A DNA stretch of 23,083 nucleotides from a virus: UHGV virus genome UHGV-2162644. One strand, 5' to 3'. Position 1 is the stretch's first letter. Each line of letters starts with the position of its first letter. The position numbers are program-made. Positions 1-6,000 of this stretch are shown piece after piece.

Positions 1-3000
1 TAGCCCATGACCACACAATATGGATTTTTTATCGATTCCAGCCGCTGTACTGGCTGTAAAACCTGCGAACTGGCGTGCAAAGATTTTAAAGTTGGTTACG
101 TATCGTTTAAAATCAATTAGATAGCCCGTCATTTCTGCGCTCACACGTCCCAACATTGAAAAACATGCAAAGCTTTGTAAGCCGATGCAAAGCTTTGTGT
201 GTCTCACTTTTGTCCCAATACCAATCCGAATCCACCCTTTGTCATCATTGAGAAATGGCAAGGAAGAAAAGGATGTTACTGCACGATTTGACAAATCCGC
301 CAGAGCTATCGCATACTGATCGCACTGAACAAATAAGCGGTCTCCGCACCCGATAGCTTTGCGGCTTTTTTATGCCTGCAATTTGGCATAGTTACATCCG
401 TACAAAGGTCGGGTGGAGAGGCGTAATACAACACCCGCAAGGGGAATATGCCCAGAGCTTCTTATTTGGCTCAGTTGACACCCGACCGCCAGCTACTAAC
501 TGGCGGTTATAAACTAAACAAATAAGGAGGTCATCATGACCAGTCAACTCATCCCCGTATTCAACGGTTCTATCTCAAACCAAGCAGCCCTTCTATGCAA
601 TGCTCGCAATCTACACGCTTTCCTTGGGGTTGGTAAACGCTTTGCATCGTGGATAACAGAACGTATTGCTGAATATGGTTTCGTTGAAAATCAGGACTAT
701 ATGATTGCTTCCCAAATTCGGGAAGCAAAAGGTAGAGGCGGTCACAACCGCAAGGAATACCACCTCACCCTCGACACAGCCAAAGAGCTTGCGATGGTTG
801 ACGACTGCGTCCAATACTGACTATACTCCGCGCCGAGGCCTCGAAAACCTCCCAAAAGCGGATTAAACCAACCCCGTCAGTGTTGGATTTTTTATGCCTG
901 TTATTCAGTGATAGCACAGTGTGCGGTCACATCCCCGATCAATGTCGGGAGGGCGACGAATACAACACCCGCAAGGGGAATAAGTCCGCGGTATCTTTTG
1001 GGCCGTTTCGAGCCTCCCGGCACCACATCTTGTGGTGGCATTTCTCGAAAAAAGCCAAAGGAGGTCATCATGACCACTCAACTCATCCCTGTGTTTGAAG
1101 GTACAATCTCAAATGAACCTACGCTTCTGGTGAACGCGCGTGATTTGCATGGATTTTTAGAGGTAGGTAAAGATTTTTCTAACTGGATACGGGCCAGGCT
1201 AAACGAGTATGGATTCGTAGAAAATTTAGACTACATTCTATTTTCGCCAAATTTGGCGAAAACTCCAGGCCGCCGCCGCAAGGATTACCACCTCACCCTC
1301 GACACAGCCAAAGAGCTTGCGATGGTTGAACGTAACGAAAAAGGTCGCCAGATCCGCCGCTACTTCATCGAGTGCGAAAAGAAACTTCGCAACATTCAGC
1401 CAGTACAAGCAGAACCACAGCCGCAATTCACAGCCGAGGAAATCATCCTCCTTTGCTACATGCAGCTCTGGATGGAAAAAGCCCAGGACCTTAGCAAGCA
1501 GCTGTACCCCATAATGAAAGAGCTGAACTCCTCATACACGAACAAGCTGTATGACATTGCGTTTGAGACTATCTACATGGTGACGAAGAACAGAGATGTG
1601 CTACTGAGAGAGGCGGCACGGCTTGACCAGTCGAGTTTCGTAGTTCAGCGGGCCAGACCAATGCTGAAAAGCCTGCGGGCAAGACAATTTGAATTCTGAT
1701 ACCAAAGGAGCTTCGGCTCCTTTTTTTATACCTGAACGACAACGCCGCTGAAATCGAAGAGTTAATACAATAAAGAGAAGAGCTCAGTACATTAGATAAA
1801 CATTTTTTATCATTATCTCATTGCCTTTATTCAAAAAAATAGTTACATAACGTTACTAGGTAAAATGCAAACCCTCGCTATTTTTATCAGATTGTATGCC
1901 GGTAACTATAACAAAAATCAGAACTGGAGAAGATGTTTTGTCAGCAGCCATTCACCGCATTGAATGGTTGTTTGAAACATTCTCTTCTGTATGTTTATCT
2001 TTTTCTGGCGGTAAAGATTCCACTGTACTTTTCCATCTTGTAGCCGAAGTGGCCTACAGGAAGAAACGTCGTTTTTCTGTATTGTTCATTGACTGGGAAG
2101 CCCAGTATCAATGCACCATTGATCATATACAGAAGATGCGGATGATGTACCAAGATGTAACAGATACCTTTTACTGGGTTGCACTTCCCCTGACGACAGT
2201 AAATGGTGTCTCGCAGTTTCAGCCTGAGTGGATATGCTGGGAGCCCGGTGTAGAGTGGGTTCGACAGCCACCGGAAGATGCTATTACTGATATGGCGTAT
2301 TTCCCCTTTTACCGCTACGCCATGACTTTTGAAGAATTTGTCCCAGCTTTTTCTTCCTGGTTCGCAAGTAACCAATGTAGCGTGGCAATACTGACTGGAG
2401 TCCGCGCGGATGAATCTCTTAACAGATTTATGGGACTGGTTTCCCAACGAAAACTGAGATATGCAGATGATAAACCCTGGACCACGGCGTCACCTGAAGG
2501 TTTTTACTACACCATGTATCCGCTGTATGACTGGAAAACCAACGATATCTGGGTATATAACGCTAAAACCTGTGCAATCTACAATCCTCTGTATGATTTG
2601 ATGTACCGTGCAGGCATTCCTCTACGTAATATGCGTGTCTGTGAGCCTTTTGGCCCGGAACAGCGTAAGGGACTATGGCTTTATCATGTTCTGGAGCCAG
2701 AAACTTGGGCACGGATGTGTGAACGAGTATCTGGTGCTGCCAGTGGGGCTCTTTATGCCAATGAAAGCGGGGCCTATTTTGCCCTGCGTAAACGGATGTC
2801 AAAACCATCCCATCATACCTGGCGCAGCTATGCGTTCTTCCTGCTGGACGTAATGCCGGAAAGAACGGCTGAACACTACCGCAACAAGATAGCAGTTTAC
2901 CTGCGCTGGTATCAGAACCGGGGATTCCCGGATGATATCCCGGATGAACAGGAAAATGATCTGGGCTGCCGGGATGTTCCCTCCTGGCGACGTATTTGTA

Positions 3001-6000
3001 AGACTCTCATAAAGAATGATTTCTGGTGCCGAACGCTCTCCTTCAGCCCCAACAAACCCCGGCACTATGAACGTTACCTGCAGCGTATGAATGAAAGGAG
3101 GAAGGAATGGGGAATTCTGTGACACCAGAGGTGGAGGTGCTGAGCAAGATGATTCGACAGTACTTCAGTCAGGAACAATCTGAAGAGAAAACCATACAGG
3201 CCCTGAACCATCTCCGCTGCGTACTCCATGAGATCAGCCCCTTTGCTCAAGAACCAGTGGACTGTGTGCTGTGGGTAAAAGCGGATGAAATTGTCGCTAA
3301 CGATTATAATCCCAATGTCATGGCCCCAAGCGAAAAAAAATTACTGAAACAATCTCTGGAAAAAGACGGTTTTACTCAACCAATTGTTGTTTCGGAAGAA
3401 ACAAGCCATTACCTGGTGGTGGATGGTTTTCATAGGCAGTTACTAGGTAGAAGAACAGTTACTGGAAAACGCCTGAAAGGCTGGCTACCAGTAACCTGTA
3501 TTAATCCAGACCGAAAGGGACAAACCTCACGTATTGCCGCGACTATCCGACATAACAGAGCCAGGGGGAAACACCAGATAACCTCAATGTCTGATATTGT
3601 CAGAGATCTTTCACGTCTTGGCTGGACTGATGAACGTATCGGAACAGAACTGGGGATGGACCAGGATGAAGTTCTGAGGTTAAAGCAGATTAGCGGGCTA
3701 ACGGAGTTATTTCAGCAGGCAGATTTCAGCCCTGCATGGACTGTTACATAAAGTTAGGTTAGGCCTGTGGAGCCGGGGAATCGGAATTAAACATCTTCCC
3801 TCCCCGGTAAATACAAATAAGGGCTGAACATCATCCCGACTACCTCAGATCACTTAATAATATATCAAGATTATTTTGCGCATAAATGCTATTCGCCATT
3901 ACTGTTGCTGCTTCTGGCGACTTTCCAAGAGCAATAAATATATCCTTAAGGCTGATTGGAATTGATGAACCATGCGGATCGCGCCACTCACCGCAAATTC
4001 TGTGAGTTTCATCACAAAGCCTGAACGCATCCCAACCTCCATATTGACCAAAAATTATGTCCATTGACTCTATTTCTGCGGGCGATAACTCCCCCAGCTC
4101 ATCAACAGAAGAAAATGTACGCCACATTTCAACCTTATGATCCGCTACATCAGATATCCATGATTCCCACGGACTGTACTCGTTTTCGCTTCCATCCTTA
4201 ACCAAAGAATATGTCTGCGATAAAACGGGTCCTTTGTTCATAGAGAAATAATGATCACCACTAATGGGAAAACCATACAACTCCATTGCTTTGCGGTCAG
4301 AGAGATACATCAGCTTAATGAAACGCATAGATCCGCCATGTTTTTTCAGCAAATACGCTGCCATTTACGCAACTTTTTCTTCATTAAACATAAATCGGCT
4401 CTCTGTCTCACATGAAATACTCTTTCTGACTATATGTTAATAGCTCCGGTTATTACAGGTTAATGTGTGTTTATTTCTTAATCAGCCCCGCACTTCCGTA
4501 CGGGGCCATTTCTGTTAATCCACTCCCACTTTTTTGTTGTACTCGCGGTTAAAGCGATCCACGGCAACCTTCATATCCCGCTCTACCGATTTCACCATCG
4601 CCGCCTGCTGCGCCAGACTGAGAGAACTGTCGGCATAAATGGCATCGCGCTGTTTGCGCAAATCCTTCAGTCTCTTCCGGGTATCCTGCATAAGCCCGTT
4701 CATCAACAATTTTCCGTTGTTCTCGTCAATGAACGCCGTTCTTTCTGCACCGGTCAGACTCTTCAGCTCTGCGTGATACTGCGCAACCTCTGTCATCCGG
4801 TCGTACATCTTCTGCTGGTCTGCATACGGCATCACCTCACCCGAAATTTTCCCCAGGAAGGGCACCTGCTGTTCCGGTATATCAATACCATTCAGCGATT
4901 TCACCGCCGCATCCGTGGTTTTGGAAATGAAGCGCCCTGTCCCTCCGGAGATATAGTCAATCCAGAATTTCAGCGATTCCGGTGTGATATCCACCGCGCC
5001 GGGACGATACTGGCTGCCACCTGAGAACGCATTCAGCCAGGATGCAAACGCCTTGTACGCTTCTGGCGTTGAACGTCTTCCCAGCTGGCTGTCAGGTTTT
5101 GGTGTACCAAACGGCATGTTCTCCTGGTAAATCTGCGCCCCCATGAAGTTTTCGTTCATGGCAAGATTCGCAAACGGACGCAGAATTGTCGGTGCTGCAT
5201 TTTTCAGCAATGCCCCGGACAGCGTTTCCGACGTCTCACTGCCAATCGGGCTGAATGCCCCCAGGATACCACCGACAACATTACCGGCAGCACGGGACGC
5301 CGTCAGGTCACCAGCAGCCACACCTTCAGAGGTATGCCCGAGCAGGAAGAAAACGTTGTACCCGTAAGGCAGAGGAATACTCCAGTACTCTCCGGCCCTG
5401 CCCCCGAACATCGATTTCATAATGACGAGGTTACGCTCTTTCACATGATACGGCACCTTGTCGTACCAGTTAACCCCGTCATCATCCTCACCCGCCACAC
5501 TGCGGTTAAGCGAGCCAAGCAGATAACCCGCTCCCACAGCTGCAAGCGCGATTTTCTGCGGTACATTGAGATTCTTCCAGCGAAGGCGCTCCAGTAACGG
5601 CCCGTCGCCATTAAGATGTCCGAGCGTTCTCACCAGGTTTGCGGTCCCCTGAATGCTGGCGTTGGCAAACATATACAGCGAGTTCATCAGCGCTCCCTGC
5701 TCACCACGACGGTTAAAGTTCACCGTCATGTTTTTGGCAAGAGATGCCGCCTGCTGGCGTGACAAACCGGCATCACGGGCGTGTTTATAGGCAGAAAGAC
5801 GCAGAGCGTTTTCAACCGCGCCGTTGGCATCCTCGACCAGGTTCAGGAACGAATGCCATGCACCGATACTCTGGCCTTTCCATCCTCCCTTCGCCAGCGA
5901 TACAAGGCGATCCATTTCCTTCTGCTGGCCTTCAAGGTCACCCATGTTAAACCAGCCGGTTTTACCTCCGTCCTCAACAAACTCTTTCCACACTTTCTGC

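Follow-up and report, generated by a model that had tools for sequence, protein, structure and literature searches.

The virus genome UHGV-2162644, a DNA of 23,083 nucleotides (nt) that was analysed at full length and is called the window below, carries two overlapping genes, ibrA and ibrB. We tentatively propose that their products are a ParB-guided, adenylation-driven enzyme/targeting pair that acts on DNA or on a DNA-bound target, without sulfur chemistry. An earlier note, made from the sequence of the window, had compared the two proteins with a minimal DndC/DndB-type module and had suggested that they are enzymes rather than plain transcription factors. The second of these suggestions is reasonable and is now better grounded, since the PP-loop and R-x-x-E-S motifs of IbrA and the NDYNPN, DGxHR and RHN-ARG-H motifs of IbrB are conserved in their families; the parallel with Dnd fared less well. 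New here are the reading of IbrA as a cysteine-free, ATP-type protein, the effectively obligate pairing of IbrA with IbrB across domains of life, the extension of the pair by SNF2 and GNAT partners, and its co-residence with an Eib-family gene. The features on which the argument draws are as follows.

1704-1723, plus strand: intrinsic terminator, AAAGGAGC-TTCG-GCTCCTTT followed by a T run, which closes the upstream antirepressor gene
1724-1895, plus strand: AT-rich ibrA leader of 172 nt, GC content 0.40
1896-3122, plus strand: ibrA, 408 amino acids, with a phosphoadenosine phosphosulfate (PAPS) reductase-like (adenine nucleotide alpha-hydrolase) domain at residues ~14-240 and a helical DUF3440 domain at ~240-408
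1998-2021, plus strand: PP-loop SFSGGKDS of IbrA, residues 35-42; G39, K40 and S42 invariant in 62 diverse homologues
3096-3101, plus strand: Shine-Dalgarno sequence AGGAGG for ibrB, within the 3' end of ibrA (translational coupling)
3107-3751, plus strand: ibrB, 214 amino acids, with a variable N-terminal stretch of ~50 residues, a ParB/Srx N-domain at ~50-158, a helix-turn-helix (HTH) at ~160-195 and a conserved F-S-x-A-W tail
3299-3316, plus strand: NDYNPN of IbrB, residues 65-70; N65, Y67, N68, P69 and N70 invariant in the family
3422-3436, plus strand: DGFHR of IbrB, residues 106-110; D, G, H and R invariant, at the ParB/Srx phosphate-binding position that is GERR in canonical ParB
3542-3574, plus strand: T-I-R-H-N-R-A-R-G-K-H of IbrB, residues 146-156; H149, N150, A152, R153, G154 and H156 invariant

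Organization of the ibrAB operon

A terminator scan together with the sequence placed a strong intrinsic terminator immediately before the ibrA leader, and a promoter scan of the 172-nt leader yielded no sigma-70 consensus promoter. The two reading frames overlap by 16 nt in the open reading frame (ORF) listing of the window, with the ibrB ATG at 3107 and the ibrA stop codon TGA at 3120-3122. Taken together, the terminator, the leader and the overlap with its internal Shine-Dalgarno sequence indicate that ibrAB is a translationally coupled operon and a transcription unit of its own; the overlap and the Shine-Dalgarno sequence bear out the coupling that had been claimed. The two motifs from which the earlier comparison started are likewise present, the PP-loop as LSFSGGKDSTV in the 408-residue protein and the ParB/Srx motif as VVDGFHRQLLGRR at residues 104-116 (nt 3416-3454) of the overlapping 214-residue protein.

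Fold and conserved residues of IbrA

Profile searches placed IbrA among the PP-loop/PAPS-reductase proteins, as had been expected, with two Pfam matches above the gathering cut-offs: PAPS_reduct (E=1.5e-16, 61.3 bits against a cut-off of 22.5) and DUF3440 (E=5.2e-33, 114.8 bits against 25). PHROG 2302 is matched at 5.8e-86. An AlphaFold2 model built with 93 homologues (mean predicted local distance difference test score (pLDDT) 82) has the Rossmann-like alpha/beta fold; the helical DUF3440 half of the protein gave no fold match. Across 62 homologues of 28-82% identity, G39, K40, S42, D66, E68, W121, S174, D217 and Y233 are invariant and S37, G38, D41, R170 and E173 are at least 90% conserved, and the R-x-x-E-S motif is invariant or nearly so down to 28% identity.

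The best solved relatives of the IbrA family profile are two enzymes that use ATP, CysD (7.5e-11) and flavin adenine dinucleotide (FAD) synthase (7e-10), the loops of which (SIGKDS and NGGKDC) align with SGGKDS of IbrA. CysH and adenylyl sulfate (APS) reductase, which do not cleave ATP, scored 4e-6 and 5e-5 and have SSSFGIQ and SGAED at the position of the loop. Since the loop is of the intact ATP type and the closest solved relatives are CysD and FAD synthase, IbrA looks like a member of the clade of PAPS reductase, CysD and flavin mononucleotide (FMN) adenylyltransferase that would use ATP, as an ATP pyrophosphatase or adenylyltransferase and not as a reductase. The equivalog models for CysH were missed by a wide interval, with 32.9 bits against 154 for PRK02090 and 31.2 against 254 for TIGR02057.

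CysH requires a C-terminal catalytic cysteine of the ECGLH type. No such cysteine is conserved in the IbrA family, and among the 62 homologues no cysteine at all is conserved family-wide at 90% or more. The position at which cysteine is most frequent (52 of 62) is alanine in the IbrA of the window, and cysteines at positions 96, 114, 249, 368 and 378 are replaced across the family by Ala, Val, Leu or Gly, at the last four also by Pro, in combinations that vary so freely that some members retain one of the five. Free substitution of this kind is typical of buried core positions and not of metal ligands or catalytic thiols, an argument that is based on the substitution pattern and not on spatial clustering. 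C249 is invariant within the closer IbrA subfamily, where it may have a subfamily-specific role.

Fold and conserved residues of IbrB

Taken alone, IbrB matches Pfam ParB_N weakly (E=1.6e-3, 18.9 bits, under the cut-off of 26.3). Despite this sub-threshold match, the ParB/Srx placement that had been claimed for IbrB was obtained, and it is secured by three further comparisons. PHROG 2159, a 'ParB-like partition protein', is matched at 4.9e-91; a profile made from 41 IbrB family sequences matches the ParB structure 4umk at 1e-6 and Noc at 2.5e-5; and 32 of the 41 relatives individually match the NCBIfam model for Noc, with 20 of the 41 matching parB_part. The pairwise alignment of IbrB with Noc spans residues 54-200 and runs through the HTH, and the motif at residues 146-156 occupies the position of the ParB ENLQRE box. 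Within the family the HTH carries ELGMDxDEVLRLKQ, and the F-S-x-A-W tail is conserved. A few relatives also match ParB/Srx-fold kinases weakly, SbnI in 4 of 41 cases and SerK in 5 of 41.

We considered and rejected a canonical partition ParB: the GERR box is replaced by DGFHR, no ParA gene adjoins, and the NCBIfam scores lie far under their cut-offs. A search of the ibrAB leader and of the region upstream of eib found no palindromic parS-like site.

Distribution and pairing of IbrA and IbrB

Counted as representatives of 50%-identity clusters, IbrA relatives number 317 at E<=1e-30 and 1,109 at E<=1e-10; at 90% identity they fall into thousands of clusters. Our survey of neighbourhoods covered 40 viral-contig loci, 80 reference-genome loci and several annotated phage and plasmid loci; reference genomes were scanned with a 14-sequence alignment, and IbrB and GNAT genes were counted with hidden Markov models (HMMs) run against all ORFs. 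IbrB adjoins IbrA on the same strand at 119 of the first 125 loci (116 downstream, 3 upstream), and the six loci without an adjoining IbrB are truncated or frameshifted. Pairing of IbrA with IbrB is effectively obligate. Pfam searches of ten over-long IbrA homologues found no ParB fusion, and an apparent 771-residue IbrA-ParB 'fusion' at locus L032 proved spurious, having been produced by an overlapping ORF in DNA of high GC content.

The pair is very common. Its hosts include Enterobacterales, Aeromonadaceae, Vibrio plasmids, Bacillota, Actinomycetota, Bacteroidota, Lentisphaeria, Planctomycetota, Elusimicrobiota and Rickettsiales, and its archaeal occurrence is in a Promethearchaeum (Asgard) metagenome-assembled genome (MAG). 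It is carried by phages of four or more phyla, lytic as well as temperate. In curated collections, 142 of 50,697 phage records contain an IbrA relative; Flavobacterium (90) and Streptococcus (21) phages, many of them lytic, dominate among these. Phages of S. thermophilus and S. equinus have the pair in an early accessory region after the lysis genes. Plasmids are a further reservoir (736 of 72,556 in PLSDB, ~1%), with 323 Klebsiella plasmids, virulence plasmids among them. On one of these, an IncFIA/FIB plasmid of the hypervirulence type from Klebsiella pneumoniae (locus L127, 8977-10838), an ibrAB copy of ~91% protein identity lies between an IS3 element and iroB / rmpC / rmpA.

E. coli K-12 encodes a paralogous pair, YbdN/YbdM. 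Chromosomal copies of the YbdN type show 57-62% identity, keep the order of A and B and occupy a fixed syntenic locus in Enterobacteriaceae. The ybdNM genes are repressed by the LysR-type regulator YbdO (PMC9068703), ybdO is itself under H-NS regulation, and YbdM has been called 'completely uncharacterized' (PMC8764527).

Accessory SNF2 and GNAT genes

Neighbourhoods of the pair are otherwise heterogeneous, with two genes that recur in the operon. One is a small GNAT-like gene, found between or just before A and B at 17 loci (Acetyltransf_1 up to 1.9e-9). The other, at 10 loci, encodes an SNF2-family helicase directly upstream and co-directional with the pair. SNF2 loci include Streptococcus phages PY2 and CHPC1148, Clostridium phage phiCs5676-1 and Flavobacterium phage FCL-2 (gp07), as well as chromosomal loci in Bacteroidota, a deltaproteobacterial MAG and Azoarcus. 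SNF2 translocases are DNA-directed motors, so that their recruitment is the strongest argument from gene context for action of the pair on DNA.

The order of genes varies in the lytic phage FCL-2 (locus L128, 4145-7009), in which SNF2-like gp07, ParB-like gp08 and IbrA-like gp09 place B before A; this trio lies between the genes for the large terminase subunit and the portal, and the 90 Flavobacterium phage records are alike in this respect. Mycobacterium phage Nebkiss gp104 (locus L131, 6296-7195) is an IbrB homologue with an N-terminal ectoine-synthase-like cupin (1.3e-32), and the gene upstream of IbrA in this phage encodes a PD-(D/E)XK protein, not an SNF2 helicase.

Prophage setting

Positions 1700-4500 of the window (2.8 kb) are 100% identical to several E. 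coli chromosomes, in which PGAP names the genes 'phosphoadenosine phosphosulfate reductase', 'IbrB-like domain-containing protein' and 'Panacea domain-containing protein'. In Escherichia phage PhiR5_2, which matches the same stretch at 99.9% identity, the genes carry the annotations IbrA and IbrB. Hence, the gene pair is the already-named ibrA/ibrB of E. coli prophages, and the fold assignments are already embedded in Pfam and PGAP names. The exact allele is present in 19 of 5,426 complete E. coli genomes, and an allele of ~84% nucleotide identity is found in about 1,900 further E. coli genomes, in various islands and in up to four copies per genome; overall, 1,930 genomes (~36%) have a match. 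Copies of ~91% identity lie in islands of O157:H7 and O113:H21 (loci L003, 6309-8477, and L005, 5797-8478), preceded by a gene for an SF1 helicase (AAA_11/AAA_12)-DUF2726 fusion and followed by a gene for a PerC-family regulator; contact with epithelial cells induces perC and ibrB together (PMC7649339).

Positions 1-11762 of the window match, at 99.7% identity, one end (the right) of a 933W-like prophage that lies beside ynfF/ynfG in strain UPEC-245U. Alignment to NZ_CP049845 identified positions 7-90 as the 5' fragment of a 4Fe-4S protein gene next to ynfF (ynfG), so that prophage and chromosome meet no more than a few hundred bases into the window. Phage 933W has the flanks in common with the window (288-702, 1058-1736 and 4310-9000) and carries DksA/TraR-like, hok/sok and YgiW-like genes instead of ibrAB and the Panacea gene. 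The description of the site as cargo, offered before these comparisons were made, is therefore correct; the slot is variable and lies at the prophage end. The 'IbrAB island' of ECOR-9, which reportedly has antirepressor genes, homology to Stx2 phage, a boundary near min 35.8 and an insertion next to ynfF/ynfG (Sandt et al. 2002), fits the arrangement in the window, which would make the window essentially the original IbrAB locus.

The survey of neighbourhoods also bears on the suggestion that the pair is defence cargo. The pair does occupy mobile, variable islands; its neighbourhoods are heterogeneous, and no nuclease or methyltransferase recurs in them. Other features of the slot and its surroundings in the window are as follows.

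425-987 and 536-1699: tandemly duplicated antirepressor 5' region, with an AntA-only ORF of 94 amino acids at 536-820 followed by a full AntA+P22_AR_C gene
3840-4364, minus strand: solitary gene for a Panacea (SocA-like antitoxin) domain protein, convergent with ibrB
4515-11735, minus strand: giant polyvalent protein gene with LPD38, LPD5, LPD1 and MuF_C domains

The antirepressor duplication is marked by a 29-nt repeat (93% identity) and a 54-nt repeat (98% identity), with spacings of 528-534 nt, and PGAP calls the first copy a pseudogene. The Panacea gene lies 150 nt downstream of the polyvalent protein gene, has no obvious toxin gene adjoining it and, among the loci fetched, accompanies only the ~100% ibrAB allele. 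The polyvalent ORF lacks ~1.2 kb of the 5' sequence that its counterparts in UPEC-245U and PhiR5_2 (8,379 nt) have, and beyond position 11762 identity to the prophage falls from 99.7% to ~93%.

An Eib-family gene on the same prophage

The window also contains a candidate for the gene that the pair controls:

20910-22211, minus strand: Eib-family trimeric autotransporter of 433 amino acids, matching YadA_anchor at 1.3e-15 and the EibD structures 2xqh at 4.5e-20 and 2xzr at 5.5e-11

This gene lies ~17 kb from ibrAB and, with its upstream region, is AT-rich (GC content 0.35-0.40). Here it is on the same prophage as ibrAB, whereas the eib genes of ECOR-9 are reportedly on separate prophages. Both ibr genes together activate eib (Sandt et al. 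2002, as cited in PMC7649339); given this published phenotype, the gene at 20910-22211 is a probable regulatory target of IbrAB. Upstream of it are three tandem 11-nt units (ATGACCATTGA) at 22541-22578, ~330 nt from the gene, and, further upstream, a direct repeat of ATACAGAATTTTCGTA at ~22615-22810, the copies of which are about 170 nt apart. Both sets of repeats are possible regulatory or phase-variable elements, and neither has a counterpart near ibrAB.

Proposed activity of the pair and alternative explanations

IbrAB has reportedly been named as a co-activator of prophage gene expression since the work of Sandt, Hopper and Hill in 2002. As the earlier note stated, the eib co-activator role is the only one that we found in the searchable literature, where IbrA and IbrB otherwise figure as annotation labels or 'regulators'; full-text searches returned no proposal of an enzymatic mechanism for IbrAB or of a link to Dnd. 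Our tentative proposal gives IbrA the part of an ATP-cleaving PP-loop adenylyltransferase or ATP pyrophosphatase, the helical DUF3440 C-terminal domain of which probably holds the substrate or the partner. IbrB, with its ParB/Srx-type nucleotide-binding N-domain and HTH, would bind DNA and recruit or activate IbrA there. The chemistry performed on DNA or on a DNA-bound target would be driven by adenylation and would need neither cysteines of the enzyme nor sulfur. Distant relatives would add an SNF2 DNA translocase, a small GNAT acyltransferase or both to what in E. coli is a two-gene core, and activation of eib would be a downstream consequence of the pair's activity. The folds, the conserved motifs, the obligate pairing and the accessory partners are what the analysis shows; we infer ATP use, a complex of A with B, a DNA-linked substrate and, for this phage, the link to eib.

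A bolder form of this proposal, possible though distinctly doubtful, is that IbrA and IbrB, with SNF2 and GNAT proteins elsewhere, carry out an undescribed post-replicative modification of DNA or nucleoid proteins. The cysteine-free PP-loop enzyme would adenylate a DNA base or phosphate under ParB-type guidance, the viral 'CysH-DUF3440' auxiliary metabolic genes (AMGs) would be DNA-modification or epigenetic genes, and the mark would switch on silenced surface-protein genes of E. coli prophages such as eib.

Several observations weigh against the ParB-guided proposal. The structure model of IbrB is poor (pLDDT 49, from a shallow alignment of 74-92% identity), so that its nucleotide-binding pocket is drawn from motifs only. 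Conserved motifs, moreover, need not mean catalysis, since the ParB partner of a phage thymine dioxygenase did not need its own NTP-binding residues (PMC13229309). SNF2 and GNAT are confined to a minority of lineages (each in 7 of 26 lineage groups), and the E. coli pair consists of the minimal two genes with neither helicase nor GNAT; hence, the case for action on DNA leans on distant relatives. Comparison of the ibrAB leader with the eib upstream region found no shared IbrB-type operator. Finally, control of the chromosomal paralogue ybdNM by a LysR-type repressor could hint at a metabolic or small-molecule role.

The main rival, which we judge somewhat unlikely, is a regulator switched by nucleoside triphosphate (NTP). 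IbrB would be a ParB-type activator or anti-silencer, DNA would not be covalently modified, and IbrA would exert control through a nucleotide-derived ligand or by adenylylation of IbrB or of another protein. It owes its place to its fit with the transcriptional phenotype (activation of eib, as cited in PMC7649339) and with the AT-rich eib region, DNA of a kind that is usually silenced. The ParB N-domain and HTH of IbrB, the weak SbnI and SerK matches among its relatives, and the position of ybdNM under YbdO, with ybdO regulated by H-NS, are consistent with it as well. What it leaves unexplained is the recruitment of SNF2 and GNAT in distant lineages and the retention of the pair in lytic Streptococcus and Flavobacterium phages, and ibrAB and eib have no candidate operator in common. 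Defence or anti-defence cargo, the role raised in the earlier note, is improbable in our estimation and gained no direct support. The pair would protect prophage, plasmid or host by modifying its own or invading DNA or by acting on nucleotide pools, with eib activation as a side effect. Its position in a variable slot beside the Panacea gene and the LPD38/LPD5/LPD1/MuF polyvalent gene, its high mobility (by the plasmid, phage and E. coli genome counts and the copy numbers given above) and its place in the early accessory region of S. thermophilus and S. equinus phages are all compatible with such a role, and among the untested candidates for defence clusters in a 2026 preprint are operons of the form NAP+PAPS-reductase(+Arc, ParBc). 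Against this, a search for known anti-phage systems with PADLOC v2 gave only weak BrxP and DndC matches for IbrA and none for IbrB, neighbourhoods do not share a nuclease or methyltransferase, Enterobacteriaceae keep the paralogue at a fixed chromosomal locus, and Panacea is linked only to the ~100% allele.

Phosphorothioation of the Dnd kind, with IbrA as a DndC-type sulfurtransferase and IbrB as a DndB-type regulator, is very improbable. The pairing of superfamilies is the same, IbrB has DGxHR, and HMM library scores do include weak DndC matches, at E 1.2e-3 in NCBIfam and 4.5e-5 in PADLOC. The former, to TIGR03183, amounts to 17.8 bits against a cut-off of 290.4 and the latter to 20.6 bits with no full stretch, and both are weaker than the matches of IbrA to CysD, CysH or BrxP. 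DndB/DGQHR models in NCBIfam matched 0 of 41 IbrB relatives at E<=0.01, and no DndC or DndB structure was among the PDB matches. Neither the window nor the E. coli islands contain a cysteine desulfurase/DndA, a DndD-like ATPase or DndE, and across 22 lineage groups no DndA-, DndD- or DndE-like gene belongs to the neighbour families that recur. Sub-threshold DndC scores, the lack of a conserved cysteine, the lack of DndB matches and the lack of Dnd partner genes thus confine the likeness to the superfamily level, and the DndC/DndB parallel drawn in the earlier note falls with them. Least probable of all is that IbrA is a true PAPS/APS reductase, a 'viral cysH' serving sulfur assimilation as an AMG, with IbrB unrelated to it or its regulator. 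PGAP and PHROG annotate IbrA as 'phosphoadenosine phosphosulfate reductase', and a virome preprint counts the DUF3440 clade among viral CysH AMGs. We argue that this label is wrong for the IbrA clade, since the family conserves no catalytic cysteine, the PP-loop is of the intact ATP type and not of the degenerate reductase type, and the ParB partner is obligate; nor do cys genes recur nearby.

If IbrAB is indeed a ParB-guided, adenylation-based modifier, it would bring new chemistry to the modification of DNA or the nucleoid, and it would explain how prophages switch on immunoglobulin-binding adhesins. An unusual pair of transcription factors, should IbrAB be no more than that, would be of local interest, to virulence regulation in E. 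coli.

Comparison with known systems

IbrAB is like Dnd in joining a PAPS-reductase-like PP-loop protein to a protein of the ParB/Srx superfamily, and the DGxHR of IbrB resembles the DGQHR of DndB. DndC chemistry depends on cysteines, with a dyad that carries the sulfur (PMC10853773), whereas IbrA has no conserved cysteines and no iron-sulfur site, and has DUF3440. BrxP, the PAPS reductase of BREX type 4, belongs to the same superfamily and is the best PADLOC match of IbrA (1.6e-7, to a profile of 779 positions). It is a DUF4007 fusion that includes a region rich in cysteine, and its working partners are a cysteine desulfurase and PglZ (PMC12839542); none of these regions or partners is found at ibrAB. 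CysD and the PAPS-reductase-like domain of eukaryotic FAD synthase (FMN adenylyltransferase) align with IbrA at the ATP-binding loops. They differ in sharing 16-22% identity with it, in having no DUF3440 domain and in having no ParB partner, and their substrates, sulfate and FMN, are unlikely to be common to IbrA.

For IbrB, the ParB/Srx-fold kinases SbnI and SerK offer a precedent for an enzyme and a DNA-binding regulator in one protein, SbnI being also a transcription regulator; their matches to IbrB relatives are marginal, and they have no PP-loop partner. Phage thymine dioxygenases (5mYOX-ParB) need a ParB homologue to act on double-stranded DNA (PMC13229309), and DpdB, as described in PMC12839542, supports DpdA in the insertion of 7-deazaguanine. 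The catalytic partner in these systems is an Fe/2-oxoglutarate dioxygenase or a transglycosylase, in contrast to the PP-loop protein IbrA, and the HTH of IbrB sets it apart from the ParB associated with 5mYOX, in which no DNA-binding domain is obvious. Both systems encode, next to the DNA-modifying enzyme, a ParB homologue dedicated to it, and they are the closest analogy for how IbrAB may work.

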